Below, one piece after another: positions 3,835-62,158 of a DNA stretch of 64,000 bases. Each line of letters begins with the position of its first letter. The stretch's first letter is position 1. The stretch is from contig OZ193909.1 in assembly GCA_964276515.1 (NCBI GenBank), positions 15,314,001 to 15,378,000 on the forward strand, read 5' to 3'. The notes beneath the pieces were generated by a model, which made no database searches, had not been told where the DNA came from, and saw only the letters and a program-made list of their open reading frames with translations. Both the position numbers and the translations under genes were made by a program. Origin of the DNA: Gordius albopunctatus. Taxonomy: Eukaryota.

Positions 3835-5094
3835 TAATATCTTTATATTCATCGTGAATTTTATCATATATCCTTCGCGCGACTTGAAACATTCATAAAT
3901 GTTAAAGTTAAATAAAAAGTTTAATTGAAGGCTCGACACTTATTTTAAAATTTGCAGAGTTTTATTACCTTTTCAAAGGTTTCTAAGATTGCCAGTGATG
4001 GGGATAAGTAGATTTAAAACCGACTTTGCAGGCGGTTTTATATAATATTATTAAAAATTGAAACACATTAATTTATCACTAATAAATGGAATTATAAAGA
4101 CTAGCTTCTAGATGACTAAATTTTTAAGTTCAAAGTTTATTTTACACATTTATCATAATATTTTTAAAAGTTCCCCAATTTAAAATCGTTAAGATGTTAA
4201 ACATGATTGAATTAGATCAATATAATTTAAAAGTTAAAATATGGTTTCCGAAGATGAGGTTAATGTATAACAAATTAGTGGTGCTATTGCAAACGGTTGT
4301 TCAGTTCTCCTCTTCTCTTCTTCTTCATCAGTTATTAGAGAACTGCACGGGTGACCCAAAACCGACCCGACCAGAACCCGAACCGTGGAGTCCAAAATTT
4401 TGAAATGTCTTTAGGTTGGATCGGGTTCGGTTTGAATATTTTAAAATGTTTTCGTGTTGGATTTAAAGTGTCGGGTCAAAGGCTATGAATCTTACATTGC
4501 AAAATACATGAGACATATTTTTAAATTATTGCTATAATGTATAATATTTTTAATTAATATCGAGATTTATAATTGAAGATCATTCATTCAGATAATTAAA
4601 TTTCATTTTTTTTATAAATCTAATTGTTTTAATTTAGACGCAAGTTTAAATTTAAATCGTGAAAGGTAAAATATATCAACAAAATAATATTTTTAAATTG
4701 TATTTAAAAGTGTGAAGTGGTAGTTCATTATTAATTTAATCTACATAAATTATATTCATAAAACAAATAAAAGTAGGGGAGACCGGGGCTAGTCGTAGCC
4801 CGATAAAGTAAAAACGATTTTTCGGGGCTATTAGTAGCCTTGACAAAATTTTGTATTTTCAACATAACATTTTTTTGGCTGTCTTATAAAGGGATATTTT
4901 TCATATAAAAACCGTCTAATAATTAAATTTTTATCGGCAATATAACATGTTGAATTATTAATTGTTTTTGTAAAAATAGGGGTCGGGGCTAGTCGGAGAG
5001 GTGCTAGTACTAGCCATTTTTCATTGCGTAGACAAATGTCAAGATTTAAAAAAAATAGTTTTGTTTAATAATAAATTATCTTAGTGTAATTTGG

Positions 5095-5151
5095 AATATT
5101 AACACTACCTACGACGGTCCCAAGTCCGTGTGCAAAAAGTGGAGGGTTGGC
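5095..5151 (+). ncRNA. Twister ribozyme (type P1) at the 5' end of RTE copy 1
   Basis: U^AACACUACCUACGACGGUCCCAAGUCCGUGUGCAAAAAGUGGAGGG aligns with the rice twister core UAACACUGCCAAUGCCGGUCCCAAGCCCGGAUAAAAGUGGAGGG (recalled). Pairings: P2 CACU/AGUG, P4 ACGG/CCGU, pseudoknots AC/GU and CCC/GGG. P1 pairs poorly in this copy. Confidence 0.85.
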
Positions 5152-8100
5152 ATCAGGTCGGAAACCGGCTATAAAAATCAACTCCAAAATTTATGATAGT
5201 TCCAAACGAGATTTTACAAGAAAAGGCTAGGGCGTCCTCCACAAACGACGCGCACTGCATACCCCGCCCGTGCAATGTGAAAAATACACTAGGGTTACTG
5301 CCCAACTCACAACGAAGGCGGTTAAGGAAACTAGTTGTGGAAAGAATGCGAATTACGTGCTGGAATGTGGGAACGTTGACGGGGAAGAGCATCGAGGTCG
5401 CACAGATGTTAAAAAGAAGAAAGGTACACATCGCCTGCCTACAAGAGACGAGGTGGAACGGAACGAAAGCTCGGGAATTAGGAGAAGGATACAAGCTTTT
5501 CTACAGTGGGTCACCAAATCGTAGAAACGGGGTCGGTATCGTTCTAAGCGAATCGTTCAAGGACAAGGTGGTGGAAGTCAAACGTTGTTCCGACAGGCTA
5601 ATGTGGGTGAAGATTGTGGATCAAGGGGGCCTCCTAATCGTTATGTGCGCGTATGCTCCCCAAATTTGGTGTTTGGAATCAGAGAAAGACATATTCTTCG
5701 AATCATTGGAAAAGGAAATACAAGGAATCCGACAGGAAGAAAGGCTAATTATTGGGGCCGATTTCAACGCTCACGTAGGGAAAGATCGCCTCGGGTATGA
5801 ACGCAATCATGGAGGCTATGGGCATGGTCTGAAGAACAAAGAAGGGGAAAAACTTCTCCAAGTATGCCAAGCATATGACATGGCGATCGTTAACACCTAT
5901 TTTCAAAAGTGCGAAGATCATATTGTGACCTATATAAGTGGGAAGCATTTTAGTCAAATCGACTATTTGCTTATACTGCGAAAGGACTTATGGAGTATCA
6001 AAGATTGCAAAGTAATACCGGGAGAAGAAATCGCTAGGCAACATCGTCCCCTTGTTATGGATCTTGACAGAAGAGTATTTCACGAAATAAGAAAGGTAAA
6101 TGAACCTCGAATTCGATACGAAAGGCTAAAGAATACGTCGACGAACGAAGAATACCATCAAAAAGCCTCCTTACTCTTGGGTGCAAGGAAGTTGCAAAGG
6201 GGCGTAGACGAAGATTGGGAAACGCTATCTAAGGACATTAAGGAAACAGCGATTCGTGTTCTAGGACAGACCAAAGGAGGCAAAGCTATGAATAGGGAAC
6301 TATGGTGGTGGGATCAATCGGTTAAAGATTTCATCGAAATAAAGAAAAATCTATATAGACGGTGGCATAAATCAAAAAAGTCGGAGGATTATCAAGAGTA
6401 CAGGGATGCAAAGAGGGCCACAAAAAAGGCCGTTGCAAAAGCGAAGAATGCTGCGTACACCGAGATGGCAAACAAACTTGATCATAAAGGGGGCAATAGG
6501 CTTATGTACAAATTTGCCAAGATAAGGGAGAAGAAAAGTCGAGATGTCGGAGTTCTTAAAATAGTCAAAAGCGAGAAGGGTCAAACCTTATTCAAGCCGA
6601 AGGAAGTGATGGAAAGGTGGAAAGGATATTTTAAGAAACTTATGAATATTGCAAATGACAAGGATTCCCTTCCCGAAATTGAGCCAAATATAAGTATGGT
6701 CGAACTCTTCCAGAAGGATGAAGTTAGGACACAAATGAACAAGATGCAAAAAGGAAAAGCAAATGGCCCAGATGGAATACCTATGGAAGCATTGCTCGGA
6801 TGTCGTGAAGAAGGAGTCACCACCATGACGAACCTCCTTAACAAGATATTGGTAGAAGAGCGAATCCCTAATCAATGGAGAGCAAGCACGATTATACCCT
6901 TATTCAAAGAAAAAGGAGACCCTCAGGACTGCGGCAATTACAGAGGTATCAAGCTAACTTGCCACTCCTTGAAGCTTTTGGAAAGGATCTTAGTAACAAG
7001 GCTGAAAAACGAGGTGGAAATATCGGCTAATCAATTCGGATTCGTGGCCGGCAAATCCACAATCAACCCAATCTTCGCCCTAAGACAAATGATGGATAAG
7101 TATGGTGAAAAGAGGAAAGACCTACATATAGTTTTTATCGACTTGGAGAAAGCTTATGACAAGGTCCCCCGCGATTTAATATGATGGTGCCTAAGGAAAC
7201 AAAATATCCCTGACGCATATATACGGCTTATGAAAAATATCTATGAAGCCTCAAACTCTTGCGTTAGGACGACAGTTGGAGACTCTAAACCTTTTCGGGT
7301 TAATATTGGATTACATCAAGGCTCTGCTTTAAGTCCCTTTTTATTTAATATAATTATAGACACGATAACGAGGGACTTTCAAAAGCCATCGCCATGGTGT
7401 ATGCTATATGCCGATGGTATAGTACTATGCGAGGAAACAAGGGAGAAGGTATTCGAAGAAGCAGAAAAGTGGTCAAAGCGCTTAGCTGGATATGGTTTAA
7501 AGATCAACGATCGAAAAACGGTATACATGGAAATGAAGGTACAAGCACTCCATCGCTGGATGACCACCTAAAGTACCCAAAAGTAGACAGGTTTACTTAC
7601 CTCGGCTCTATGCTACATCAAGAGGGAGGTTGCGCAACTGAAATCAATGCCCGGATTCAAAAAGGATGGCTTAAATGGCGAAGTATATCCGGTGTAATGT
7701 GCGACAAGAAAATGCCAATATGGTTGAAGAGCAAAGCTTACAAATCCATCGTAAGACCGGTGTTACTCTATGGAAGTGAAACATGGGCATTAAACACCAC
7801 GGAAGGAAAGCTATTACAAGCCACGGAGATGAGAATGATACGATGGAGCTTGGGGTATACTAAGCTCGACCATATGACGAATGACTTTCTCATGACAAAA
7901 ATGGGTATTCAACCTATGGCGGACATGATTAACGAAAATCGTCTAAGGTGGTATGGGCATATACTAAGAAGGGACCCGGATGACGTAAATCGAAAAGTGC
8001 TAGACATGAAAATACCGGGGAAGAGAGGAAGAGGACGACCCCGTGTCACGTGGAAAAGGCAAGTCGATAAAGTTATGGAAACTAAAGAGATTCGTCAAGA

Positions 8101-8192
8101 CATGGCACTAACCCGGTCAAGATGGAAGAGAATCATCAAAACAAACCCCACCAATGTGGGACCAAATAACTGATAAAGAAGAAGAAGAAGAA
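5101..8192 (+). mobile_element. Full-length RTE-clade non-LTR retrotransposon, copy 1 (defective)
   Basis: APE endonuclease motifs (WNVGTL, LQETRW, GADFNAH, SQIDY) and RT motifs (FIDLEKAYD, GLHQGSALSP). (GAA)n tail; 15-bp TSD GTAATTTGGAATATT (5086-5100, 8193-8207). Defects: stop at 7182-84, YADD changed to YADG, frameshift near 7537. Confidence 0.96.
5193..8173 (+). pseudogene. Disrupted APE-RT ORF of RTE copy 1
   Basis: ORFs 5193-7184, 7230-7571 and 7394-8173 join into a single ORF when compared with copy 2. Confidence 0.92.
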
Positions 8193-8808
8193 GTAATTTG
8201 GAATATTAATAGACTATTTAAAGTTTTTTTCAATTGCAGAATTTGTCTTTTATGGGTATACCTCAATCAGATTATCATCATGCCACTTTTTTATTTGTAT
8301 TATGTAAAATATTTTTTTTATAATAAAACAATTTTTTGATTGATTTGAGTTAGCATACACCAATAGAAAGTAAAAACGTAAGGGATAATCTATCCCCCGA
8401 AAGGGGATATAACTTGCACGGGAAATTTTTAAATCTTTAGGATTTTTGTTTTTTTTGAATTTAATTTGTGAGAAAACTATAAAAAAATTTAAGCCGAATT
8501 TTTTTTCTATAGTAAAAATATACCTTAAAATTACGTTCCAACAAAAAAATTAAAAAAATAATTTTTAGTTTTTCTTAAACGCGATTTAATTTTTTATGGC
8601 TATTTAGTCCCCGGTCTCCCCTAAGTTTAAATTTACAAAATGATTCATTTCCAAAACTATATATTTCAAATTAGACCCGATATTGTAGATGCTATCATAT
8701 TTATACATCTCAATAATGAATCATTCAAATAGATTTAGCAATCAAAATCGGAAGTCTAAATAAATTTCATAACGCACTTTAATTTGTCGATTAAATTTTA
8801 AACACTCT

Positions 8809-9121: not shown

Positions 9122-11934
9122 GTTTGTTTTAATGAGTTTCTTCCATCTTGACCGGGTAAGTGCCATGTCTTGACTAATCTTTTTTGTTTTCATAACTTTA
9201 TCGACTTGCCCTTTCGACATGACACGAATTCGTCCTCTTCCTCTCGTCCCGTTATTTCCATTTCTAGCACTTTTTGATTTAAATCATTCGTCTTCCTTCT
9301 TAGTATATGCCCATCCCACCTTATCCGATTTTCGTTAACCATGTCCGCCATAGGTTGAATACACATTTTCGTCACGAGAAAGTCATTCATCATATGGTCC
9401 AGCTTATTATACTCCGAGCTTCACCGTATCATTCTCATCTCTGTGGCTAGTAATAGCTTTTCTTCCGTAGTGTTTAATGCCCATGTTTCATTTCTTTAGA
9501 GTAAAACCAGGCTAACGATGGATTTGTAAGCTTTGCTCTTCAACCATATTGGCAATTCCTGTCACACATTAATCAGATATACTTTACCATTTAAACCATC
9601 CTTTTTGAATCCGGCATTAACTTCTGTTGCAACCTTCCTCTTGATGTAGCATTGAACCGAGGTATATGAACTTGTCTACTTTTAGGTAATTTATATGGTC
9701 ATCGAGCGATGGACTACCTTTAATGTCGTTTCCATGTATACCGTTTTTCGATCTCTGTCCTTTAAACCATATCCAGCTAAAAGCTTTGACCACTTTTCGG
9801 CTTCTTCGAATACCTTCTACTTTTCTTCTAGCATATTACTATATCATCTGCATAGAGCATATACCATGGCGATGGCTTTCGAATGTCTCTCGTTAACGTG
9901 TCAATAATTATATTAAATAAAAAGGGACTTAAATCAGATCATTGATGTATTTTAATTTAAACCCGAAAAGGTTTAGAGTCTCCAACTGTCGTCCTAACGT
10001 AGGAATTTTAAGCTGCATAAATATTTTTATAAGCCGTATATATGCGTCAGGGATATTTTGTTTTCTCATGGACCACCATATTAAATCGCGAGGGACCGTG
10101 TCATAAGCTTTCTTCAAATCGATAAAGACATATGTAGATAGATCTCTTCTCTTATCACCATATTTATGCATATTTTGTCCTAGTGCGAAGATTGTGTCGA
10201 TTATGGATTTGCCGGCCATGAATTAGTTATTCGATATTTAACCTCGTTTTTCAGCCTTTTTAATAAGATCCTTTCCATAGGCTTCAAGGCGTGGCAAGTT
10301 AGCTCGATACCACTGTAATTGCCACACTCCTGAGGGTCTCCTTTGCCTTTAAATAAGGGTATAATCGTGATTGCTCTCCATTGATTAGGAATTCGCTCCT
10401 TTTTGCATCTTGTTCATTTGTGTCCTAACTTTATATTCCTGAAAGAGTGCGACCATCCTTATGTTTGGCTAAATATCCGGAAGAGAATCTCTGTAAATTG
10501 CAATATTCATAAGTTTCTTAAGATATCCTTTCCATCACTTACTTCGGCTTGAATAAGGTTTGACCCTTCTCATTTTTGACTATTTCAAGAACTCCCATAT
10601 CGCGACTTTGTTCTCCCTTATCTAGGCCAAATTGTTCAAAAGCCTATCGCTCCATTTTTGGCGCAGTTTGTTTGTAATCTCGGTGTACGCCATCGCTATT
10701 GCACCTGCCCTTTTTGCGGCTCTCATTGCCTCCATATACTCTTGATAATCCTCCGCCATTCTTTATTTATGCCGCCGTCTATATAGATTTTTCTTTCTTT
10801 CTATGAAATCTCTAACTTATTGATTCCACCACCATAGCTCCTTATTTATAGCTTGGCCTCCTATGGTCTGTCCTAGAACTCGAATCGCTGTTTCTTTTAT
10901 ATCCTTAGTTAGCGTCTTTCAATCTTCGTCTACGTCCCTTTGCAACTTCCTAACACCCAAGAGTGAGGAGGCTTTATGATGGTATTTTTCGTTCGTCGGC
11001 CTTAGTCTTTCGTATCGAATTCGAGGTTCAAAGCCCTTTCTTCTTTCGGTAGATACTTTTCTGTCAGGATCCCCAATAAGGGGACGATGTTGCCACAATT
11101 TTTTCTTCCGGCAATCCTTGATATTACATAAGACCTTTCGCCCTATGAGCAGATAGTGAATTTGACTAAAATGCTTCCCACTTCTATAAGTCACAATATG
11201 ATCTTCATGTTTATAAAAATAGGTGTTAACGAACGCCATGTCCTATGCTTGGGATTTTTGGGAGAAGTTTTTCCCCTTCTTTGTTCCTCAGACCATGCCC
11301 ATAGCCTCCATAATTTGAGGCGATCTTTCCCTACGTGAGCGTTTAAATCCGCGCCAATAATTAGCCTATCTTTTTGTCCTATTACCTGTATTTTCTTTTC
11401 AATGAATCGAAGAATATATCTTTCTCTGATTCCATTAACCCAATTTGGGGACCATACACGCACATAACGCTTAGTAGATCCCCTTGATCTGCAATATTTA
11501 CCCACATTCGCCTGTCTGAACAACGCTTGACTTCCAACACCTTGTTCTTGAACGATTCGGTTAGAACGATACCGACCCCATCTCTACGATTTGATGACCC
11601 ACTGTAGAATAGTTTGTATCCTTCCCCTAACTACCAGGCTTTGGTTCCGTTCCACCTCATCTATTGTAGGCAGGCAATGTGTACCTTTCTTCTCTTTAGA
11701 ATTTGTGCGACCTTGATGCTCTTTCCCGTCAACTTCCCTTCATTCCATCACGTTACTCGCATTCTTTCCAAGACTAATTTCCTTAACCGCCTTTGTTGTG
11801 AGCTGGACAGTAACCCTAGTTTATTTTTTACATTGCACGGGCGAATTATGCATTTGTTTGAATCTATCTTGATTTTAGAGTTGGTTTTTATAGCCGGTTT
11901 CCGCCCTCACGCCAACCCTCCACTTGTTGCACAC
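9122..11934 (-). mobile_element. Older degenerate RTE, copy 3; its (GAA)n tail is displaced to ~4306-4335
   Basis: Reverse complement is collinear with copy 1 and has many stops and indels. TTCTTCTTCATCAGTTAT lies left of the MITE at 4336. Only the 3' half of the twister survives (~11912-11934). Confidence 0.92.
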
Positions 11935-13529: not shown

Positions 13530-16500
13530 TTATAATTGTATTTCAGGATAAAGATCCTTTAACGCTACAACGTTTTTGTAAAAATTATTCCATTTCGGTA
13601 TAAATGTCAATTCTGCCTTATTCATACGACGCTTGGCTCTTTTCTTTTGCCATATATCCAGCACTTCCAAAATATCCATTAAATCATCATTTTGCGTGGT
13701 ATATAGCTGTTCATCAGCCACTTTTAGGATACCATTCTCACAAAATTCCGTAGGTGATTGTATTTTAAAGGGGAATTCAATCGGTTGGTCGAGTTTGTCG
13801 AGACAATTTGCGTCAAATTTCGTAGCAAAATCGAGGACATTTTTACTAGTCGTGTCAACTTTATCTAAAGCCTTAGCCGTCTCTGGACTCACCTCTCCTC
13901 GGTTTCCATTCATAAAGTTAAACGAATTCGTTGATTCAGAGTGAAATGTTCCAGGTACGTATTGAAAAGAAGACTTTTTAGTAGCGTTCATTGAGCAAAC
14001 TAACTTTTCGCTATTTATATCGTTTTCATGTTTTCTACTTTCGTCCATATCTTGTGACATTCCACGTGTTTGTTTAATCAAAGCGTTAAAATAATTAGCG
14101 ATCGTGCCACCGTTTAATGTGGGCAAATTTGGGTAGGTAGAGGATTTAAATGATTCCATAAGTTTGAAATATAAGTTTTCGCACAAATCCTTTTCCAGCG
14201 ACGACTTAAATATAAGGTTAAAACCTAACTCGGGTGATGATGCTACGTTACTTTCCCCTTGACACTTGTAATTTTTCATCCTTTCAACCGACCGTATTGA
14301 GACCAAACCTTCTTTAATATGGTAGAATAAACCCTTGGAAATGAGTATACCCGATAACTCTAATAATAAAAAGCTTAGGCAAGCTAATTTGAAAGACCAT
14401 CCCAAGTTGTAAACTTTATCTCCGGCACGGGTATATGTGGAAGAAAGCTTTAGAGCTTGTATGGCGATCATCATGTCGTCCCTTTCCAGTTGAAATTCTA
14501 GTTCATCTTCGTCAATCATTTTATCGTCTAGGGCGATGATAAGGTTGCGTTTTAAAGTTATTTCGTTTTCCATCTTTGAGATGATTATGATCATGCCCAA
14601 AAATAATACCAAACCTAATAAACAAATTTTATATATAGATTGTTAGTGATGCGGGAAAACCGAGAAAAATCTCGAGACGAGATTTTGAAAAATTGAGTCG
14701 AGATCGAGACGAGAATTTTGACCTCGAGACGAGACGAGATTTTATCGGCGAGATCTCGACTTTAATTTTTATCTATTAAGTCTTCATTTAGCTAATTAAG
14801 AATTTTTATTTTATGAGATTTAAATTTAGGGTATTTAATGCAAATTAATATGATTTTGAAACTTTTGATAGTAATTACTTACGCAACTAAATATCCGCTT
14901 CGCGCAAATTTCAAATTTGCATTATAATCTTAATAGACATAGTGTTAGTAGCCCTTAGGGTATTTGTTACTTATTTTTATAGCTTATATAATATAAAATT
15001 ATTTAGACCTATAATGTGTTTATGCGCAACAAGTTCATCATCCAACACAAAAAAGAGCAAGCTGCTCAAACATTTCACAGTATTCAAGGATGAATAAAAT
15101 AAAATGGAGAAGTGTAAATTGTGCTTTAAAGAAATTTTTTATATTAAGTTATATATGTGCAATTAACGGAAGATCTCAAAACTGTTATGTTCTTCCAACA
15201 AAAATGCCTATTTTATTGTATTTACAATGTTGAGATAATTACTTGTTATTAATAATGATATCTTCAAAAGTTTCATCTCGCATTTTTGTCATTATTTTAA
15301 CTTTATTATATAAGATCTCAATAAATTCATTATGTTAAAATATGATGATATTATTAAACTTTATCCTTTTATTGAGCCTTAGCCAGGAAATGAAAGTTAT
15401 TGTTTAGCAACTTTATACCTTCGAGGCAAGTAGTATATCTAACACCTCCAATAATGCTTCCTGTCTTAAGATACCCATCTAGCTTGTGTTTTGGGGTTTG
15501 AGATAAAAAATTCGTTCTATTATGACCAATTTATATCTTAGATAATAATTTATAAGAGTCAGAAAAAAATATATGGTACAATTATTTTTAAAATTCGAGA
15601 TTTTAATAATTGCACCCGAGACGAGACGAGATTTTGCTTTCGAGACCGAGACGAGATCGCAACACTATAGATTGTGGGTATCCTTACACACACAAAAAAA
15701 TGTTTATAAGCCTTAGTGCCTTCAAAATCAAATAAGCTGCATTTGAAAGTTTAGATTGCCTTTAAGTTACTATTAGCTTGGTGAACTAAATTACTCAATA
15801 ATTATGGATCATTATTTAATTCAGTCCTTTACAATTAGGGAGACCGAGGAAAGGATAACCATAAAAAATTAAATAGCGTTTTAGAAGAAGAAAATTATTT
15901 TCTAAATTTTTCCCTTGTATGTATTTTTGTTAAGTTTAGATAGTTTGTTTAAATATTGCGTTTAAAAAACTACAAAATTCTACAGTTTTAAAATGTCTGG
16001 AGCACGTCATAGCTTTGTTCAGGTGATAGAATAGCTTAATATTTCGCTATTTTTTGTAAAACGATTAATTTATATGAAAATTATTGAAACTCAAACGCAT
16101 ATTCTACCCATTACACTTATAAAATTAGTCAATAGGACAACCTGACTTATGTACCCATAAAAGAAGGACACTACAATGGAAAAGTCCTTTAAAAGAATAT
16201 TAATGTATAATCATTATTTCTCTTCCAAATTACAACAAGTTAAAATATTAAGCGAAGTTTTTAAATCTTTCATTCTTAGGTAAAATACAATGAGAAATGA
16301 CTAGCACTAGAGAGAGACTCTCACTAGCCCCGACAAATAATAATATAACATCTTGTTTTCAAATAAAAATTGAATTATTGAGCGGTTTTTATAGAAAAAA
16401 TTGGCCGTCATAGGATATAACTCAAATTTGTTTGAAATATACAACCAAACAAATTTTATGTGCAAAATAAAAAACCAAAAACCGTTTTTTCTTTTAAAAT

Positions 16501-19500
16501 TTTTTTAATCTTATTTTTTCGAAACAATAATTTTTTTATTTACATTTACTAACAAAAACATATAAAAATGTTATTGTACTCAATCATTTTAAAGAATAAT
16601 TAATAAGATACAAGAGCCCCGCGCTATAACTAGCCCCGGTCTCCCTTCTATATCAATTTATAAGCTGACTGATTTCAAAATCATATACCCATAATTAATA
16701 ACTAAATTTTAAATCTAATTATTTTTCATATTTGTGTTTTACAATAGTTCAACCATTTAGTTATATTTAAACATAAAATACACGATGCCTTCAAGAGATA
16801 AAAAAAAGGGTTCTGTCGGTCGGTCATATAATATACCTGCCATAATAAATAACGTGGAACTGACGACATTGTAGGGATCTTTCTCTTTACGAAGCCAAAG
16901 AATATAGGAAAGTGTAGCTATTAAGGCAAATATTAGGCTAGGTGTAGGGAATATGAAAGCCGTTTTCATAGAATCTACATGATTAACAAAGTTTTAAAAA
17001 ATTATTATCATATACTAGTGTGTGTGTCATACAAATATAAAACTTATTCTCGTTGATTTGTAATCGGGCACTTTTTTTGGACGACTGACAATATTAATAA
17101 AAAGTTACATTAACATTTTTATAGGTTATTAAATCTAATTTATCGTAAATAAGCACACGCTAGATACTAATAAAAAGGGAAGGGTTTTAGTAAGATTCGA
17201 TAATTTTATTAACTTAACTTGTTACAATACTGTCTTCATAATTCGATATTCGTCCATAAGTTCGGAGACCAATATGACTTATATAGTCTAGTCAACCTAT
17301 TCATAGCATAAAACATTAATTGTGCTAATATTAATGCCTCCTAATAAATTGCCATATATTATGGACTTACAATCACTTTTTTGCTATTTTTTCTATCTTT
17401 ACATGATTTTAATAATATAATACTAATTTTGTTCATATGATGCAACTTAGGGCCTATATCATTTATTAAATCGTAAAAGTCATATGCTGTAACAACATTT
17501 TATTGCGATTCTATATGTAGTTATGTCTTTACTACGCCTCTGGATTTCGAATCGAATCGAATATTTTTGATATTCGATTCGGATTCCATTTTTTTTCAAA
17601 AAAAATATTCGATTCGAGATTCGTCGAATATTAAAATTAAGATTCGAATTCGATTCGAAAAAAATTTAAGGATTCGAATTCGATTCGAATATATATCAAC
17701 ATTTTTTAAATCAAAATTTAAATTCAAAAAAGACTAACTGTGATTTTTATTGCATATATATTTAAAAAATTTATTCAAAAATCTTTAAGAGTACACACAT
17801 TGAAAATAAAAAGATAAAAGGCGAACAAAAGATTAAAGCGATATGAGTAAAACAATCAACAAATATTTTTTAGCCAATTTTTAAGACTAATTATTTTCCT
17901 AACACTTTCTTCCTTAAAGGATTGCTTGTATTTCGTCAATAAATTTGTACCAGTTGAGAACATTTTTTCGCAGGGGGTAGATGATCCTGGTATGGAAAAG
18001 AAGATTTTTTGCAATTTTTTGGATGGCTGGAAAACGACGTTGATTCGATTTCCACCATTGTAAAGGCTCAACATTGGAGGCCACCCGTGGTTCGTTTAAA
18101 TATGTCTCCAATGGAGACTTCGCGTTCATATCACTTTTAAATAGACGATCGAGGGCTGATACCTCGCTAGTTGGGACAAAATCAAGCTGACTTCCTATAG
18201 CAGCTTCCAAGTCATCTTTAATTTCGCTATAAGATATGTCGTGTATTGGTGATAAACACTCAAAATATTGAATTTTGAGTCTTGGATCGACGACACTCGC
18301 TAATAAGGCTATTTTCTTATTAAATGCCATATATTTTTCAATTTTCTGCTTAGCCATTTTAACAGCATGATCTTCTACGGTGGCGAAAGTTTCTATAAGT
18401 TAGTAATATACGGGTAATACTAAATTCATCGTGGGATATTGCTCCCCGGATATTAAATTAGTGGCACTGTAAAAGGGAAAAAGTAGGAATTTACGCCTTT
18501 CAATTTCTTCCCATTCGACGTTGGATAATAATTCCTCTTTGTAGAATTTAAAGGCTAAATCGTCCAATGCCTGCCTCATTAAAATAGCCTTTTCAATCAT
18601 TATGTAGGTGCTATTCCACCTGACTGCCATGTCGAGTTTCACCTTTATGTAATTGATAGGCGGGTCAAATTCTTTGCAAATAGTCTTTATTCGTGATATA
18701 TTTTTGTGCTGTCTGGCTATTTTTATCAAGGTCCTTAATTAAATTAAATTACGATCTACATTCTCCATAACCTGTTTAGCTGCTAGGTTTATGATGTGTC
18801 CCATACAGCGAACACCCACAATATTTAACGAGGGGTATTTACTTGAGAGGACCTCAATAAATGAAACATTATTCCTGGCATTATCTAAGGTAATTGAACA
18901 ATCGTTCAAGCTGATGCCATTATTGTTTAATATTGTTAGAAAAACATCACATATGTTTTCTCCTGAATGTTTATCAATAAATGGATGGCAATCTACTAAA
19001 ATATTTTCTAGCTCCCATTTATCATTAATAAAATGACATGATAATGCTAGGAATGGGACCCCAATGGGAGATGACCATATGTCAATGGTGTAATTCAATT
19101 TTAAACAAACTTGTGATAATTTTAATTTAATTTGTTTTGATGTTTCTATATAGACTTCGTCTAAATATTTTTTCATTATATCTGATGTATAAATCTGCAT
19201 AGTTGTACTTCTAGCCCATTGAATTTTTTTAAAATTTATTAAAATTTAAGCTGTTTAAGGCTTTCAATGATATATTACATTCTACCATCCATTTTAACAA
19301 ATAATGCTTATCATCATATTTAGGATTTAAATATTTTTGAATATTTTCATTTTCATCCTTAAGGGGCTTTGTATGGAAACTTTTATAGTGCTTATTTAAA
19401 GCTGAAGTCGTTCCTGATTTGTTGTATACGAAGACTTTAAAGCAATGGTTGCAAGTTGCTTTATTAAGTGATTTGTCATGGGTGAAATGGTCCCATATTA

Positions 19501-24382: not shown

Positions 24383-25053
24383 AAAACTCGGGCCTTCGGC
24401 CCTCGTGGTAAGCGGAAGGGGGCAATGGGAGTAGGGGAAGGGAAGGGGGAACTCTTCTATACTCTGTATAAAAGTAACATATTTGCTATGCAATTTATGG
24501 GCGAGAAAGGTGGGAAGGGGCGAGAATCTCTATGGGGGGGGGGGGTATTAAATGCAAAATAATTGGACTGACGAGCATAGGGTAAATATCAATGGTAACC
24601 AATTTAAAAAAAAAACGAAAAATAAAATTTCGAATCACAAATTTGGCCAATGGTCATTTTTTCAAATAGTTAATAATATAATAACATCTTCAAGATTTGT
24701 TAGAACGTTCACATGGATTCGAACCCACATTAATAGAGACATAGGATTTTGCAGGGGCACAGGGATCCATATCAGTAGAGGCATAGGCCCTTGTCGTGGA
24801 GGGCATATGGTAATTATCAACGTTACCGAATTCAAAAACGAAAAATTAAAAATTTGGATTTATTTGGCCTATGGTCATTTTTTTCATTGGTCAGTAGCCT
24901 GCGGACGGTCAAAAAGTCATATTATCAATGGTATTAACAAGAACAAAATATTAATTTAATTTAAAAAAAAAATAAAAAAATTTTGTCCTCTCCGGGTCTC
25001 GATCCCCAACCTGCAAGACAACAAAAAACGAGCCCATAAATTGCATAGCAATT
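24383..25053 (-). mobile_element. Helentron-associated (HINE/DINE-1-type) non-autonomous element
   Basis: 20-bp subterminal inverted repeat TTGCTATGCAATTTATGGGC (24483-24502 / 25032-25051) and a terminal stem-loop GGGCC-TTC-GGCCC (24390-24402). The centre holds ~1.5 units of the 240-bp repeat. Confidence 0.75.
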
Positions 25054-30198: not shown

Positions 30199-32661
30199 GG
30201 GCTATTCCATGACATATCAAAACGGTTTCGGCCCACCATCTCAGATCGAGCTGATTTTTTGTGAGAATTTAGACCCTATAGGAAATAGTAATTTCTGAAA
30301 ATTTTAACCATTTTGGGCCAATACTTTTTAAGTTATGGACGCTAAAATGGCCAAAATCACGCTCGAGTGCGTTTTACAAATTTTACTATTATTGCCATAA
30401 TTTCAAAAGTATTGGTTCTAGCTTCGTAAATTTTATTGCATTTTAATCCTTATAAAATTCTCTACCAGAAAAATGTAACCTAAAACCTCAAACTTTTGTG
30501 GTTGAAGTTTTGTGGTTAAATTTGTGGAAAACCAAAAAAACTTACTTCGCCACCAGCTATAATCACCAAATTCACCATGGGGATTCCCCTATGTCCAAAT
30601 ATCAAATTTCTAAAATAAAAAGTTTGGGGACGGCTATGAGGTGGTCAGGAAATCGAAAAAACACTAATAAATTAAATTAATTTATAGGTGGCGCTATAAA
30701 CAACTATTGCGAATCTGATATTTTAACTATACTTTATTATTAAAGGGCCACATAAAGATATATCTGATAAATAAACAAAGTTGGAATATAACCTTATGAA
30801 AAATTCTTAAATATTGACTTAATTAAAAACAAATTAAGGGAATTCGATATTACATTATGACTTTTTATCTAAATTATACAGGGTTAGATTACAATTGCTT
30901 GGTTTTTTATTGCCTTAAAAGATATAAAATCGCAGCTGGCACATCATCCTAGCTTTCTACAATTAAATGATTAAGGCCATATGTGCAACAACGCTATTAA
31001 TTAAAGCACAAAATCGATGTCCTATTAATTTTATTTGTTTCAACTGGCTATAATTTCATTAAATACTTTAATTTTGTGTCAATTAATTTCCATGCATAAA
31101 ACCACTTATTGTTGTAATCCATTTAAGACCCATAAAGGTAAAATCAAAGGAATAAGAAATGTTTCTAAATGGATGACCTTCTTAGATCCCAATGCGAAAT
31201 TATGTGACACATGTCGCAAATTAATTTATCAACGCCGGGATATTCCAAATATTAATCCGTCTGTTGATCCTTCTTTCTCCCCCCCAATAAATGAAATTAT
31301 AGACAAAGCAGGACCATCTATTCAAGCCCTTAATACCTCATTATCTATGATTGCCGAATCGCCGATTAAAATGAAGAGATTCGTAGAAAAAAAATATCCA
31401 TCAAGAAAATTAGCAAAAATTAAAAAAAGCCTTGCCACAACCTTGGAAATCGTCGAGGAAAACAATCAATTATCGGTCGATTCTGAATTACTAGATAGTA
31501 TGAAATCTTTCGAATTGTTTGAATGGGCAAAAAGAAGTTTAACAAACATAAGTTTTGGGTATATGTCAAATGACGAGGTTAAACAAGAGGAATTGAGACT
31601 TGTTTCAAGGTTTAATCGGGCGAGACCTATAGCTGGAATGCAAAAATTACACGCGTTAATACCGATTGATAGAAAGAGTGTAAAAACAAAGACATATTCA
31701 AATTCGAATGAATATTTTAAGGAAGAAATTCAACGAGCGGATGAAATTGATTTGGCATACCTAAATGGTTATGTGGCATGTAAATACCAGAGCAAATGGT
31801 GGTTAGCTCTGGTAGTTGGCAAGGATTTAATTAATGAAAATATTGTCGTCCACCTTTTACATCCCAATGGTCCATCCAAGTCATTTTTTTTCCCGCCAAA
31901 ATTAGATAAAATAAACATTAAAAAATCGGATGTTATAATGACAATGTCTCCGTACACAATCACGGGACGTAGTTACACACTTTCTGCACAAGAAATGGAT
32001 TTGGCTACTACGCAACTACATAAAATGTAGCTTGAGAAGCAATTTATTATTTATTATAATAAAGAATATTTATACAATTTTTATTGAACATGAATTAGAT
32101 AATAAAAATTATTTATTACGGTATATCTTTAACGAATGTTCGAAGACAAAGTTTACCCTAACCCTGTATAATTTAGATAAAAAGTCATAATGTAATATCA
32201 AATTCCCTTAATTTGTTTTTAATTAAGTCAATATTTAAGAATTTTTCATAAGGTTATATTCCAACTTTGTTTATTTATCAGATATATCTTTATGTGGCCC
32301 TTTAATAATAAAGTATAGTTAAAATATCAGATTCGCAATAGTTGTTTATAGCGCCACCTATAAATTAATTTAATTTATTAGTGTTTTTTCGATTTCCTGA
32401 CCACCTCATAGCCGTCCCCAAACTTTTTATTTTAGAAATTTGATATTTGGGCATAGGGGAATCCCCATGGTGAATTTGGTGATTATAGCTGGTGGCGAAG
32501 TAAGTTTTTTTGGTTTTCCACAAATTTAACCACAAAACTTTAACCACAAAAGTTTGAGGTTTTAGGTTACATTTTTCTGGTAGAGAATTTTATAAGGATT
32601 AAAATGCAATAAAATTTACGAAGCTAGAACCAATACTTTTGAAATTATGGCAATAATAGTA
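30199..32661 (+). mobile_element. Internally deleted DNA transposon with long TIRs, Sola2-like
   Basis: ~504-bp near-perfect inverted repeat (30384-30887 / 32158-32661). The left end probably extends to GGGCTATTCC at 30199, so the right TIR looks truncated. Superfamily assignment is from recalled motifs. Confidence 0.75.
31035..32030 (+). CDS. In-frame internally deleted transposase (Sola2-like); first in-frame ATG at 31092
   Basis: N-terminal CCNPF..H...CDTCRK Zn-binding motif joined to C-terminal YVACKY..KWW...LHPNGPSKSF. No central catalytic region is visible. Confidence 0.6.
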   Translation: MFQLAIISLNTLILCQLISMHKTTYCCNPFKTHKGKIKGIRNVSKWMTFLDPNAKLCDTCRKLIYQRRDIPNINPSVDPSFSPPINEIIDKAGPSIQALNTSLSMIAESPIKMKRFVEKKYPSRKLAKIKKSLATTLEIVEENNQLSVDSELLDSMKSFELFEWAKRSLTNISFGYMSNDEVKQEELRLVSRFNRARPIAGMQKLHALIPIDRKSVKTKTYSNSNEYFKEEIQRADEIDLAYLNGYVACKYQSKWWLALVVGKDLINENIVVHLLHPNGPSKSFFFPPKLDKINIKKSDVIMTMSPYTITGRSYTLSAQEMDLATTQLHKM

Positions 32662-35661: not shown

Positions 35662-35878
35662 ATTATGCTTTTTAATACCAATGCTATTTAAGACATTATT
35701 GCACAATTTCGCTAATTCTTTTTTTTAATTTTATTATCACTTCGTAAATGACATTGAACAAGGTATTTATTATGTTTATATGCATTATAAATGCTAATTT
35801 TGATAATAAAATTAAAAAAAAGAATTAGCGAAATTGTGCAATAATGTCTTAAATAGCATTGGTATTAAAAAGCATAAT
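35662..35878. repeat. Perfect 78-bp inverted repeat with a 61-bp spacer
   Basis: 35662-35739 is the exact reverse complement of 35801-35878. Confidence 0.93.
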
Positions 35879-35882
35879 TAAA

Positions 35883-35939
35883 TACAATAACACTACCTAC
35901 GACGGTCCCAAGTCCGTGTGCAAAAAGTGGAGGGTTGGT
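35883..35939 (+). ncRNA. Twister ribozyme (type P1) at the 5' end of RTE copy 2
   Basis: Core identical to copy 1; predicted cleavage between 35888 (U) and 35889 (A). Flank-derived CAA (35885-87) can pair with UUG (35935-37) as a 3-bp P1. Confidence 0.87.
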
Positions 35940-38900
35940 GTCAGGTCGGAAACCGGCTATAAAAATCAACTCCAAAATTTATGATAGTTTCAAACGAGAT
36001 TTTACAAGAAAAGGCTAGGGCGTCCTCCACAAACGACGCGCACTGCATACCCCGCCCGTGCAATGTGAAAAATACACTAGGGTTACTGCCCAACTCACAA
36101 CGAAGGCGGTTAAGGAAGCTAGTTGTGGAAAGAATGCGAATTACGTGCTGGAATGTAGGAACGTTGACGGGGAAGAGCATCGAGGTCGCACAGATGTTAA
36201 AAAGAAGAAAGGTATACATCGCCTGCCTACAAGAGACGAGGTGGAACGGAACGAAAGCTCGGGAATTAGGAGAAGGATACAAGCTTTTCTACAGTGGGTC
36301 ACCAAATCGTAGAAACGGGGTCGGTATCGTTCTAAGCGAATCGTTCAAGGACAAGGTGGTGGAAGTCAAACGTTGTTCCGACAGGCTAATGTGGGTGAAG
36401 ATTGTGGATCAAGAGGGCCTCCTAATCGTTATGTGCGCGTATGCTCCCCAAATTTGGTGTTTGGAATCAGAGAAAGACATATTCTTCGAATCATTGGAAA
36501 AGGAAATACAAGGAATCCGACAGGAAGAAAGGCTAATTATTGGGGCCGATTTCAACGCTCACGTAGGGAAAGATCGCCTCGGGTATGAACGCAATCATGG
36601 AGGCTATGGGCATGATGTGAAGAACAAAGAAGGGGAAAAACTTCTCCAAGTATGCCAAGCATATGACATGGCGATCGTTAACACCTATTTTCAAAAGTGC
36701 GAAGATCATATTGTGACCTATATAAGTGGGAAGCATTTTAGTCAAATCGACTATTTGCTTATACTGCGAAAGGACTTATGGAGTATCAAAGATTGCAAAG
36801 TAATACCGGGAGAAGAAATCGCTAGGCAACATCGTCCCCTTGTTATGGATCTTGACAGAAGAGTATTTCACGAAATAAGAAAGGTAAATGAACCTCGAAT
36901 TCGATACGAAAGGCTAAAGAATACGTCGACGAACGAAGAATACCATCAAAAAGCCTCCTTACTCTTGGGTGCAAGGAAGTTGCAAAGGGGCGTAGACGAA
37001 GATTGGGAAACGCTATCTAAGGACATTAAGGAAACAGCGATTCGTGTTCTAGGACAGACCAAAGGAGGCAAAGCTATGAATAGGGAACTATGGTGGTGGG
37101 ATCAATCGGTTAAAGATTTCATCGAAATAAAGAAAAATCTATATAGACGGTGGCATAAATCAAACAAGTCGGAGGATTATCAAGAGTACAGGGATGCAAA
37201 GAGGGCCACAAAAAAGGCCGTTGCAAAAGCGAAGAATGCTGCGTACACCGAGATGGCAAACAAACTTGATCATAAAGGGGGCGATAGGCTTATGTACAAA
37301 TTTGCCAAGATAAGGGAGAAGAAAAGTCGAGATGTCGGAGTTCTTAAAATAGTCAAAAGCGAGAAGGGTCAAACCTTATTCAAGCCGAAGGAAGTGATGG
37401 AAAGGTGGAAAGGATATTTTAAGAAACTTATGAATATTGCAAATGACAAGGATTCCCTTCCCGAAATTGAGCCAAATATAAGTATGGTCGAACTCTTCCA
37501 GAAGGATGAAGTTAGGACACAAATGAACAAGATGCAAAAAGGAAAAGCAAATGGCCCAGATGGAATACCTATGGAAGCATTGCTCGGATGTCGTGAAGAA
37601 GGAGTCACCACCATGACGAACCTCCTTAACAAGATATTGGTAGAAGAGCGAATCCCTAATCAATGGAGAGCAAGCACGATTATACCCTTATTCAAAGGAA
37701 AAGGAGACCCTCAGGACTGCGGCAATTACAGAGGTATCAAGCTAACTTGCCACTCCTTGAAGCTTTTGGAAAGGATCTTAGTAACAAGGCTGAAAAACGA
37801 GGTGGAAATATCGGCTAATCAATTCGGATTCGTGGCCGGCAAATCCACAATCGACCCAATCTTCGCCCTAAAACAAATGATGGATAAGTATGGTGAAAAG
37901 AGGAAAGACCTACATATGGTTTTTATCGACTTGGAGAAAGCTTATGACACGGTCCCCCGCGATTTAATTTGGTGGTGCCTGAGGAAACAAAATATCCCTG
38001 ACGCATATATACGGCTTATGAAAAATATCTATGAAGCCTCAAACTCTTGCGTTAGGACGAAAGTTGGAGACTCTAAACCTTTTCGGGTTAATATTGGATT
38101 ACATCAAGGCTCTGCTTTAAGTCCCTTTTTATTTAATATAATTATAGACACGATAACGAGGGACTTTCAAAAGCCATCGCCATGGTGTATGCTATATGCC
38201 GATGATATAGTACTATGCGAGGAAACAAGGGAGAAGGTATTCGAAGAAGCAGAAAAGTGGTCAAAGCGCTTAGCTGGATATGGTTTAAAGGTCAACGATC
38301 GAAAAACGGTATACATGGAAATGAACGGTACAAGCACCCCATCGCTGGATGACCACCTAAAGTACCCAAAAGTAGACAGGTTTAATTACCTCGGCTCTAT
38401 GCTACATCAAGAGGGAGGTTGCGCAACTGAAATCAATGCCCGGATTCAAAAAGGATGGCTTAAATGGCGAAGTATATCCGGTGTAATGTGCGACAAGAAA
38501 ATGCCAATATGGTTAAAGAGCAAAGTTTACAAATCCATCGTAAGACCGGTGTTACTCTATGGAAGTGAAACATGGGCATTAAACACCACGGAAGGAAAGC
38601 TATTACAAGCCACGGAGATGAGAATGATACGGTGAAGCTTGGGGTATACTAAGCTCGACCATATGACGAATGACTTTCTCATGACAAAAATGGGTATTCA
38701 ACCTATGGCGGACAGGATTAACGAAAATCGGCTAAGGTGGTATGGGCATATACTAAAAAGGGACCCGGATGACGTAAATCGAAAAGTGCTAGACATGAAA
38801 ATACCGGGGAAGAGAGGAAGAGGACGACCCCGTGTCACGTGGAAAAGGCAAGTCGATAAAGTTATGGAAACTAAAGAGATTCGTCAAGACATGGCACTAA

Positions 38901-38980
38901 CCCGGTCAAGATGGAAGAGACTCATCAAAACAAACCCCACCAATGTGGGACCAAATAACTGATAAAGAAGAAGAAAATAT
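35889..38980 (+). mobile_element. Full-length RTE retrotransposon, copy 2 (nearly intact)
   Basis: Same 5' start as copy 1 (AACACTACC), GAAGAAGAA tail, 12-bp TSD ATTAAATACAAT (35877-88, 38981-92). Near-identical to copy 1. Confidence 0.97.
35981..38635 (+). CDS. APE endonuclease-reverse transcriptase, 884 aa; frame stays open past one TGA to 38962
   Basis: Intact endonuclease motifs and YADD. A single in-frame TGA at 38633-35 separates the last ~108 codons. Confidence 0.9.
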   Translation: MIVSNEILQEKARASSTNDAHCIPRPCNVKNTLGLLPNSQRRRLRKLVVERMRITCWNVGTLTGKSIEVAQMLKRRKVYIACLQETRWNGTKARELGEGYKLFYSGSPNRRNGVGIVLSESFKDKVVEVKRCSDRLMWVKIVDQEGLLIVMCAYAPQIWCLESEKDIFFESLEKEIQGIRQEERLIIGADFNAHVGKDRLGYERNHGGYGHDVKNKEGEKLLQVCQAYDMAIVNTYFQKCEDHIVTYISGKHFSQIDYLLILRKDLWSIKDCKVIPGEEIARQHRPLVMDLDRRVFHEIRKVNEPRIRYERLKNTSTNEEYHQKASLLLGARKLQRGVDEDWETLSKDIKETAIRVLGQTKGGKAMNRELWWWDQSVKDFIEIKKNLYRRWHKSNKSEDYQEYRDAKRATKKAVAKAKNAAYTEMANKLDHKGGDRLMYKFAKIREKKSRDVGVLKIVKSEKGQTLFKPKEVMERWKGYFKKLMNIANDKDSLPEIEPNISMVELFQKDEVRTQMNKMQKGKANGPDGIPMEALLGCREEGVTTMTNLLNKILVEERIPNQWRASTIIPLFKGKGDPQDCGNYRGIKLTCHSLKLLERILVTRLKNEVEISANQFGFVAGKSTIDPIFALKQMMDKYGEKRKDLHMVFIDLEKAYDTVPRDLIWWCLRKQNIPDAYIRLMKNIYEASNSCVRTKVGDSKPFRVNIGLHQGSALSPFLFNIIIDTITRDFQKPSPWCMLYADDIVLCEETREKVFEEAEKWSKRLAGYGLKVNDRKTVYMEMNGTSTPSLDDHLKYPKVDRFNYLGSMLHQEGGCATEINARIQKGWLKWRSISGVMCDKKMPIWLKSKVYKSIVRPVLLYGSETWALNTTEGKLLQATEMRMIR

Positions 38981-38999
38981 ATTAAATACAATGAAAATT

Positions 39000-50942: not shown

Positions 50943-51138
50943 GTCTGCTTTTACTTTATTGCTTCCGCCTACTTAAAATACTGATCTTCGCTTTAACATA
51001 CTAACACACTAACCACTAACCTACTAACAACTGAACACGTAACCTCTGGTTAGCGTGGCCCGAGATGCACCTATGGTGTCAGATGGGACTCAATCTTAGC
51101 TTGCCGATTTAGATAAGCTCTTGTTTGTCATCGGGGCT

Positions 51139-51563
51139 TATACATACATACATACATACATACATACATACATACATACATACATACATACATACATACA
51201 TACATACATACATACATACATACATACATACATACATACATACATACATACATACATACATACATACATACATACATACATACATACATACATACATACA
51301 TACATACATACATACATACATACATACATACATACATACATACATACATACATACATACATACATACATACATACATACATACATACATACATACATACA
51401 TACATACATACATACATACATACATACATACATACATACATACATACATACATACATACATACATACATACATACATACATACATACATACATACATACA
51501 TACATACATACATACATACATACATACATACATACATACATACATACATACATACATACATAC
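51139..51563. repeat. (CATA)n microsatellite
   Basis: Uninterrupted run of ~425 bp. Confidence 0.99.
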
Positions 51564-53102
51564 CATTAAATCTTATGAATTGATTGGCTACTAATCTTAA
51601 TGGTCATAAATCGTCTTACATACTCACATTCTAAACCTCAATCCTAGAATAAATCCTAGAATCTTTTATATCTACACAAATTATTAAATTTAAGGCCCGA
51701 CAATAGATAATTCAACGCGTTTTAAGAATTTAAGATCTATTTTATATTTAATAAAATTCCTAAATAAAATCTTTTTAATTTTATATTATGGACACTTCAG
51801 ATAATTTAACCCGGGTAGATATCAATATGACGGGAGTCTTTCTCTTGTTGAATCTTAAATTTATCTAATTGTTTATTTAATCTTAAGGTGTCGAAATCAA
51901 ATCGAAGTAGATTTTTTATCTCCAATTCCCCCTTAAAAAACTGCAGAACTGTTTCCTCACAGGAACTAGCTAGGTTGAAGTTACTTTCAAAAATAAGTAA
52001 TGACGGTAGTAGTTACCTTTTTAGGTAACTGAATAGTTCCAGTTATTTACCTTGAGGAATCAGCGACATTTATGTTCATTCAGTTAAAAGTTTTCACAAT
52101 TTAATAAAATAATATTTATGAATATAATTTATTGAAATTTTTGTTAAAAAAAATTTAATATTAATTAGGAATTTCATTTAATATTATCATTTAATAAACG
52201 CCTGCGATTTCACATTAAATTACCGTGACTGAAGACGCTCGACTTTAGTGGTTTATTAAATATGATAAAAAGTTTTTAATCTTGAAAAATTATCGTAGAT
52301 TTCTAAAGAACCTTTATCATTATCTTAGGTTAGAAAGTGTTGGGCCGTGGGGCTCGATAAATGATTATCAACGAAGCGCTATATTATACCAGCATCCAAT
52401 ATTTTGTTAATCAATTGAATGCTATATTTACAGACTGTAATCTTTAGCATCTGTTTTATCACATGAAGAGTAAACACTTCTTAATGACAGATTTTCATTT
52501 ATTCAAATATATTTAAAAAAACTACAAAAAATCTTAAGAGGACTCTAAAATCTAATAATAAGATATAGTCACCAATATTTACATTGTATTACACATCTTG
52601 CACATTTGATGTTTCGCCACAGTGCATACATTGACGGGAAATCTATTATATATTTAATTTTATTGTATTTTAAGATTTACTACAATTCATAGCTTAATTA
52701 ATTAATAATACAACACCAAATATAGACTGCTTGTATAAGAACATTGAAATAAATATGTCAAAATAAGCATGATGAAAGCTTAGAAAAAAATCTTTATGTT
52801 TTCAACACTCTCCGAGATTCGCGATTTGTTCGAGAACGTGATTTGAATCAAAATTTGCGAAAAAGTTGGAGTTTGATTTAATTCCAAACCATTTAAGCAA
52901 TTATTGGAACGTTAGGCACGTGATTATTGAAGTTTCTTCCATCCGTTAAATTCATTGTGTATAAGCTATCCTAAATCCAAAATAAATTACTCTTAAATAA
53001 CAAGTTACTTGGTCCAAATTATCCTGCCTCATATGGTCATATCCCGGATTCACGAAGCCATAATCATTTCTAATATCATTTAATTTATTTTTTTTATTAT
53101 TC

Positions 53103-56006: not shown

Positions 56007-56494
56007 AGAATATAATATTTATTATATAAAACTAAAGAATAAGCTATTCTAATTTTGTATTCCATTTATTTATTTGGGATAAATTATGTAGTGAACAGTT
56101 AACACATAAAAACGTGATTTGATTAGTTCATATATATATAATATTCATGGGCGTTGTCAGCAAAAATTAAAATTTTGTTAATTATTAAATAAATTAACAA
56201 ACGAATTAATAGTATTTATATTTAAGTAAAGACTAAGACACTTTTAAATACTTTAAGAGTTTATTTATACTTTTTTGAAATTTAATCTTCGACAAAAAAG
56301 CTTTTGATCCTTAATTCCTTTTTTTAAAATTCACGTGTTCACTTGTCAAAAAAAACTTAGTTGAACATCTTCCCCACAAGACTAACTGGCCCTCCCAGAC
56401 TTAAGTAGCGATTTTATAATTTATAGAGGTGATTCTATTCGGCAATCGGAATACATAATTTCCCTTTCGCGGATAAATATGGTGAAAAGAGAAA

Positions 56495-58540: not shown

Positions 58541-58920
58541 GGATAAGGGCTAAATTCTGAAACTACCGACACGATTCGCGCGAAAATTTAACCGTAGATG
58601 CCGAAGGCGGCCAGGGGTAAAATAGCTTTTTCAGATTCCTAAAATTCCTTTTAGTTTTAAAAATATCGGACATTTCCCAGCCAGTTTTATTTATAGCATC
58701 CTATACAATAATGACGTCATACATACAAGGTTGAAGTTTTCTCGAATTAGATATTTAAAAGTATAATAAAAATGTTACAGTAAACGGTGAAAATTATTGG
58801 GGTTTAACAAAATATTTAAATTAAATAAATAAAATAGTGGTTTATAAACACTTTTGTCACTTAACTGTGCATGTTATCGCTAAACATCGCTAAGTAATAA
58901 GTACTTAAAACTGTTATAAA

Positions 58921-61397: not shown

Positions 61398-62158
61398 CTT
61401 CTTCTTCTTCTTTATCAGTTATTTGGTCCCACAGTCGTGGGGGTTTGTTTTGATAAGTTTCTTCCATCTTGACCGAGTGAGTGCCATATCTTGACTAATC
61501 TCTTTAGTTTCCATAACTTTATCGACTTGCCCTTTCTATGTGACATGGGGTCGTCCTCTTCCTCTTTTTGATTTACGTCATCCGTGTCTCTTAGTATATG
61601 CCCATATCACCTTAGTCGATTTTCGTTAATCATGTCCGCCATAGGTTGAATACCAATATTTATCATGAGAAAGTCATTCGTCCTATGGTTGAGCTTAGTA
61701 TACCCCAAGCTTCACCGTATCATTCTCATCTCTGTGGCTAATAGCTTTCCTTCCGTGGTGTTTAATGCCCATGTTTCACTTCCATAGAGTAACACCGGTC
61801 CTACGATGATTTTGTTAGCTCTGCTCTTTAAATATATTGGACAATACACTAGATACACTTAGCTTTAAGCCATTCTTTTTAAATCTGGGCATCGACTTCT
61901 GTTTCGCAACCTCCATCTTGATATAACATCGAATCGACGACTATAAAATGTCTGCTTTTAGGTACTTTAGATATTAATCTAGCGAAAGGGAGCCTGTGAC
62001 GTGCATCTCCATGTATACTGCTTTTCGATCGTTGACCTTTAAACCATATTCAGCTAAGCGTTTTGACCACATTTCGGCTTCTTCGAATACTTTCGCCTTT
62101 GTCTCTTTGCATAGTACTATGTATATCATCGGCATATAGACTACACTATGGCGATGGC
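61398..62158 (-). mobile_element. 5'-truncated degenerate RTE, copy 4
   Basis: (TTC)n tail followed by the reverse complement of the RTE 3' end up to the YADD region. Confidence 0.92.

Follow-up and report, generated by a model that had tools for sequence, protein, structure and literature searches.

Twister ribozymes at the head of an RTE-type retrotransposon are known from Perere-3, an element of the RTE clade in Schistosoma mansoni. According to the accessible part of that study, the T-variant twisters of Perere-3 cleave in vitro and in yeast (Liu 2021, PMC8501958). The route described there begins with read-through transcription and self-cleavage that leaves 5'-AA, and continues with translation of the uncapped RNA and target-primed reverse transcription; the target-site duplication (TSD) supplies N-1 and the 5' strand of stem P1. 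Cleavage is allowed by any base at position -1, with C*AA, G*AA and A*AA among the sites cut (Liu 2021, PMC8501958). A literature search, which covered papers outside subscription and judged most of them by title or the start of the abstract, found only this study of twisters in RTE elements by experiment. R2, L1Tc and some RTE elements carry HDV-like ribozymes at their 5' ends, as far as the accessible parts of PMC6765202 and PMC5786205 go. These ribozymes are proposed to do the job considered here for a twister, in that they would free the element from a co-transcript and help cap-independent translation, whereas their fold is different. It lies wholly downstream of the cut, making HDV-like ribozymes independent of target DNA.

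The window, which is the whole 64,000-nucleotide stretch of DNA analysed here, contains two full-length copies of one RTE element, both on the forward strand (copy 1, 5101-8192; copy 2, 35889-38975). The copies are 3.1 kb long and 99% identical, differ by 32 substitutions and two small indels over ~3090 nt, and are young, recent insertions of one family. The window has their 29-nt head, AACACTACC...AAGTCCGT, at exactly two places (5101 and 35889), and none of 100 shuffles contains it. Copy 1 is flanked by the duplication GTAATTTGGAATATT (left, 5086-5100; right, 8193-8207), which measures 15 bp, or 17 bp if the first AA of the element is counted. Because this match runs 2 nt into the AA, the 5' junction of copy 1 is ambiguous by 2 nt. 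The 12-bp duplication of copy 2, ATTAAATACAAT (left, 35877-35888; right, 38981-38992), stops on its left side exactly before the first A, and this junction is unambiguous. Two older partial copies lie on the reverse strand. An older copy (9122-11934, 81-86% identity) keeps the 3' half of the ribozyme only, from J4/2 to UUGG, and a 5'-truncated 3' fragment (61402-62158, 82% identity) is without ribozyme. DNA of the window outside the element is 69% A+T.

The assignment of the element to the RTE-type non-LTR retrotransposons, made in the preliminary description, is supported by sequence features. A single ORF starts with an AUG 92 nt downstream of the first base of the element and encodes, by Pfam, only two domains, APE (PF03372) and RT (PF00078), with no RNase H. 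The ORF of copy 1 (5193-8173) is interrupted twice, at 7182-7184 by a stop and near 7537 by the loss of 1 nt, which shifts the frame; that of copy 2 (35981-38962, 993 codons) has one premature stop at 38633-38635. The 3' UTR is only 13-19 nt long and ends in (GAA)3-5: (GAA)5 closes the UTR of copy 1 (8174-8192), and in copy 2 a UTR with (GAA)3 is followed by five filler bases and the right TSD (together 38963-38992). A single APE+RT ORF, a very short repeat-ended 3' UTR and TSDs are the hallmarks of RTE elements in the accessible part of Tay et al. 2010 (PMC2887409), and all of these features are present here, with TSDs of 12 and 15-17 bp. The best database relatives of the encoded protein are APE+RT proteins at 40-44% identity, and motifs shared along its length with the named plant RTE proteins in Additional file 2 of PMC2887409 can be recognized by eye.

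Judged from sequence, the first 50 bases of both copies are an intact twister ribozyme core, and the two cores are identical. In copy 1 the core spans 5101-5150, with A7 at 5101 and G45 at 5142; in copy 2 it spans 35889-35938, with G45 at 35930. The Rfam twister-P1 model (RF03160) matches copy 1 at 5096-5150 with 39.7 bits (E 1.6e-7 when 301 nt are searched and 3.4e-5 for the whole window) and copy 2 at 35884-35938 with 42.2 bits (E 6.6e-6). The covariance model, named beforehand as a check, gives significant E-values at both copies but scores 25-27 bits under the gathering score of 67.2, and an Rfam scan of the window at gathering level gave no match. The shortfall probably results from the incomplete P1, the missing P3 and a longer linker. 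In a relaxed Rfam scan no ribozyme family other than twister-P1, and none of the HDV family, was found at E up to 1. The proposed alignment of ~46 nt with the type-P1 core also held at the level of structure. Coordinates in copy 1 are 5103-5106/5138-5141 for P2, 5107-5108/5124-5125 for pseudoknot T2, 5109/5113 for the pair C15-G19, 5114-5117/5126-5129 for P4, 5118-5125 for loop L4, 5130-5137 for the J4/2 linker, 5144-5146 for the 3' strand of T1 and 5147-5150 for the P1 3' arm UUGG. We take the T1 register and the non-canonical pairs to be assigned as in crystal-structure numbering. Watson-Crick pairs are formed in both copies at 4/4 positions of P2, 4/4 of P4, 2/2 of T2, 3/3 of T1 and at C15-G19, a total of 14/14.

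The reference for a position-wise comparison was a set of 11 rice-type twister cores from metagenomes (L001-L011), one of which (L001) is identical to positions 7-49 of the Osa-1-4 sequence given in the PMC5113685 supplement. In both copies A7, A8, U24, A28, A29, G45 and A46 are the same as in the rice type; A7 is the acid and G45 the base of twister catalysis in the accessible part of PMC6154101. The window core also resembles rice Osa-1-4 (RF03160; PMC5113685, in part) in being a minimal core without P3 and in having identical P2 and T1. Unlike Osa-1-4, it has A13-U31 and A20-U35 pairs, a UAC loop and a longer linker, and encodes no P1 5' arm. Both compensatory exchanges claimed in the preliminary description are real: against 11/11 rice-type cores, G13-C31 of pseudoknot T2 has become A-U, and so has C20-G35 of P4. 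Other changes had been omitted there, namely the L3 loop (UAC vs AAU), the J4/2 linker (8 vs 5 nt) and the incomplete pairing of the UUGG arm, whose 5' partner comes from target DNA and forms 2/4 pairs in copy 1 and 3/4 in copy 2. Stem P1 is reported to be non-essential for twister in the accessible parts of PMC5113685 and PMC8501958.

The mutational scan of the rice twister allows the two exchanges to be weighed. G13 is one of only four positions at which every single change gives an activity below 0.20 (Kobori and Yokobayashi 2016, PMC5113685). In the part of the matrix consulted, the relative activity of G13A alone is 0.17 and that of G13A with C31U is 0.89, the next best of the 142 cells in the row being 0.24. 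Of all partner changes the window family carries the one that restores the fold, and this points strongly to selection for the pseudoknot. Little weight can be given to the exchange in P4, since C20A is tolerated by itself (0.86, against 0.94 with G35U; PMC5113685, in part). The matrix holds single and double mutants only, and the sum of the changes in the window core, including the linker longer by 3 nt, lies outside it. The window core is a natural example of a pseudoknot swap predicted active by the mutational scan.

The element's 5' end falls on the twister cut site. The TSD directly adjoins the cleavage-site AA in 2/2 full-length copies of the window, and the same edge was seen in public data when contigs of four of 22 listed runs were aligned to 35790-36190. 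The four runs (X1-X4) carry two organism labels and belong to two studies, with X3 and X4 from the other label and study; X1 may be the source sample, and the counts are of contigs rather than insertions, from listings beyond which lie 941 further loose-end rows and 24 further variant rows. In the four runs the flank has summed depths of 400, 133, 0 and 0, and the bin with 35889 has more than 500,000. Loose upstream ends at 35887, 35888 and 35889 number 12, 48 and 62 contigs in one run and 16, 47 and 68 in another, among the rows listed; in the other two, where 35887 is not listed, the ends at 35888 and 35889 number 42 and 54, and 41 and 71. Unrelated upstream DNA thus joins the family at 35887-35889 in 4/4 runs, and the consensus upstream is AT-rich and of low agreement, as expected for many different insertion sites. 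It follows from this pile-up that the family starts at A7. Within the 50-nt core lies only 1 of the 40 variant rows listed, in the variable J4/2 linker. Many single-contig joints skip 30-160 nt of the 5' UTR within 35910-36110, and summed depth is higher over the ribozyme than over the rest of the 5' region; both observations may be due to subfamilies that have diverged, or to short non-autonomous derivatives with the same head.

The expectation that the 5' end coincides with the predicted twister cut site is upheld by these data, and the shared head of the two copies, each with a T before it (T5100 and T35888), is confirmed. The T itself is not a feature of the family. It is the last base of the TSD in each copy, which had been overlooked, and is therefore target DNA and not part of the element. 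A T precedes the element in 37-49% of the junctions listed, compared with a background of 34.6% in AT-rich flanks, and a preference for T at -1 was dropped as a candidate.

It is probable (roughly 0.85) that the 50-base twister core, as read from its sequence, frees the element RNA by cutting a longer read-through transcript precisely at the first base of the element. A host transcript would run into the element, and the core would fold as a double pseudoknot and cleave 5' of A7, with G45 as the base and A7 as the acid. Translation of the uncapped RNA, which ends in a 5'-OH, would begin at the AUG 92 nt downstream, and the RNA would then be copied by target-primed reverse transcription. As a result of self-cleavage at the first base, every complete new copy would start at AA and would borrow N-1 and the P1 5' arm from its new target site. 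In copy 1 the left TSD supplies N-1 (T5100) and a chance P1 5' arm (5096-5099); in copy 2 it supplies N-1 (T35888) and the three P1 pairs. Since the UUGG arm consists of U and G throughout, each of its bases pairs with half of random target bases; the expectation is 2/4 pairs, and the pairing of the two copies is near it. The idea that UUGG is uniquely promiscuous is weakened by GGGG, which has the same expectation (2.0 of 4), and GGCA follows with 1.5. A borrowed P1 5' arm would make some insertions better source elements than others, and the window family makes an existing idea testable, namely that a copy's ability to transpose again is decided by its insertion site through the P1 supplied there. 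Release of the RNA by read-through and cleavage, with the absence of an internal promoter, is what we infer, and the route shown for Perere-3 is the simplest account.

The sharp 5' junction could also be produced by an internal RNA polymerase II promoter with a fixed start at +1, in which case the twister core would co-exist with the promoter or be vestigial and would not set the 5' end. Such promoters are present in L1 and jockey. The conserved block continues beyond the ribozyme as far as about 35977 (of the 40 variant rows listed, 3 fall in 35889-35977), and other functions may be encoded in it. However, the junction coincides to the base with the scissile position, and compensation of the sensitive pseudoknot pair points to selection on the fold. 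A reverse-transcribed cap leaves an extra G, but in 4/4 runs the consensus has A instead of G before 35889, with an agreement of only 0.45-0.47. We regard an internal promoter as improbable. A chance resemblance to twister is far less probable still and can be given very little weight. It would be in keeping with scores below the Rfam gathering score, but would have to account for E-values of 1.6e-7 to 3.4e-5, for 14/14 core pairs with two of them compensated, and for the exact coincidence of the core with the junction.

A somewhat less likely explanation than an internal promoter is that the ribozyme once set the 5' end and is now slow or mostly misfolded. It would be kept mainly as a structured leader that serves in cap-independent translation or binds protein, and the edge of the copies would reflect stalling of the reverse transcriptase. 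A P1 with 2-3 of 4 pairs and a predicted competing downstream helix would fit such a history, as would the role in translation that Liu 2021 (PMC8501958, in part) found for the cleaved ribozyme. On the other hand, P1 mutants are well tolerated in the rice twister (PMC5113685), stalling is not expected exactly at A7 whatever the flank, and the copies are young, as their few substitutions indicate. The twister ribozyme at the 5' end of this young RTE family is real and probably active.

The competing helix involves a strand downstream of the core. In the ViennaRNA minimum-energy fold a small hairpin is predicted 3' of the ribozyme at 5156-5170. When the first 100 nt are folded without pseudoknots, the prediction contains P2 and P4 and pairs G47-G53 of the ribozyme with TCAACTCC, about 30 nt downstream (5178-5185; 35966-35973 in copy 2), at predicted energies of -5.5 and -8.1 kcal/mol. 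The same fold lengthens P4 by UAC/GUG at the cost of C15-G19, and its stability is not unusual (z -0.7 to +1.1). The competing helix is overstated in this prediction because the program cannot score T1 or T2. The strand is retained as CCAACTC in the older copy at 9122-11934, and at 35966 the majority base is C in X3 and X4, which improves the pairing. This predicted complementarity could serve a refolding after cleavage, act as a brake, or be due to chance.

The comparison with Perere-3, as far as that element is described in the accessible part of PMC8501958, shows a common plan with different details. Both elements have a 5' twister, a single APE+RT ORF, a TSD next to AA, a P1 5' strand derived from the TSD, a UUGG P1 3' arm, a short repeat tail and non-specific insertion. 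The Perere-3 examples in Table 1 of that study have a P3 stem, P2 of CUCC/GGAG and T2 of GC/GC, whereas the window core is without P3 and has P2 of CACU/AGUG, T2 of AC/GU and an 8-nt J4/2. In the window element the distance from the first A to the AUG is 92 nt; in Perere-3 it is about 112 or 147 nt from the T-variant, where the starting point of the count may differ. The tail repeat is GAA compared with GTAA, the hosts differ, and activity of the window twister is a prediction. That twisters are known in RTE elements of Schistosoma, as the preliminary description stated, is correct and was established experimentally (PMC8501958, in part). The principle of a twister-headed RTE element is already published for Perere-3, and no new principle is presented here. 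New are the P3-less core with a compensated pseudoknot, the possible downstream competing helix and peptide-level hints in a maize RTE element and two relatives. The window family, which is young and autonomous and has a different core, is a second case and shows that the arrangement is not confined to Schistosoma.

The peptide-level hints come from read-through of the ribozyme. The stretch P4-L4-P4-P2-L1 of the twister would encode RSQARIKEEG, and this peptide is found upstream in 2/103 related proteins with a recognizable APE start (P0040 and P0048), a count in which most of the proteins start downstream of any ribozyme. Both proteins are 42-43% identical to the window protein, and their N-termini look like translated twister cores (residues 11-23 of P0040 and 18-30 of P0048); the gene calls appear to run through the ribozyme. 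Shuffled leaders gave 0.005 such matches for the pattern of that frame, which was fixed after P0040 and P0048 had been seen. In maize ZmRTE-a01, as given in the accessible part of PMC2887409 file 2, a nearly identical peptide, RSQARLKEEG, lies upstream of the APE domain. These peptides hint at the same ribozyme in ZmRTE-a01, P0040 and P0048. With the first 45 residues of P0040 as query, only P0040 itself was found among 12 candidates, and none of 148 new proteins added by a profile search had the read-through peptide. Kojima 2018 (PMC5786205) reported an unexplained conservation of RTE 5' regions, and its accessible part has no mention of twister.

A pattern scan of metagenomes found 11 loci, all of the rice type and none with the window variant. 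These are the reference loci L001-L011; each has 3-4 P1 pairs, and tblastn of the RTE protein matched none of the 11. Their upstream flanks are G/T-rich, and they are apparently part of a plant repeat. Pattern scans of prokaryote genomes and viral contigs for the twister core gave no match, and no locus could be confirmed when viral contigs were scanned at the protein level. The motif CCCAAGTCCG/CCCAAGU was absent from the one Liu 2021 supplement searched (PMC8501958, in part), and none of three twister motifs was found in the PMC5786205 supplement. We consider it an evenly balanced question whether the 5' twister is the standard 5'-processing device of a large animal-plant RTE lineage, with target DNA completing the ribozyme and deciding which insertions remain active; the family in the window may add a strand that refolds the 3' half of the ribozyme into a hairpin as a timer or switch to translation.

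Several other features of the window are of minor interest. Matches to mir-297 and plant miRNAs at the relaxed Rfam threshold were rejected, as they fall on microsatellites or AT-rich DNA. Long TATG/CATA arrays at about 51040-51600 and 56390-58590 are the cause of the spurious mir-297 matches and of six-frame ORFs. A 2.3-kb element at 30384-32661 with 513-nt terminal inverted repeats (99% complementary) is likely a DNA transposon; the 333-aa ORF inside it (31029-32030) has no Pfam match. Fragments of a hAT transposase are present on the reverse strand at 17914-19245, with a Dimer_Tnp_hAT domain at 17914-18399 and no Pfam match for the adjacent ORF at 18739-19245 (reverse strand). A 370-aa ORF at 13530-14642 (reverse strand) matches the last helix of TARP/calcium-channel gamma-2 subunits weakly and without significance (E about 0.5), a hint of an exon of an animal host gene. 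Finally, a 239-nt tandem repeat with GGATTCGAACCC-like motifs is present in three copies at 210-926, and a related copy is found 24 kb away at about 24640-24970.
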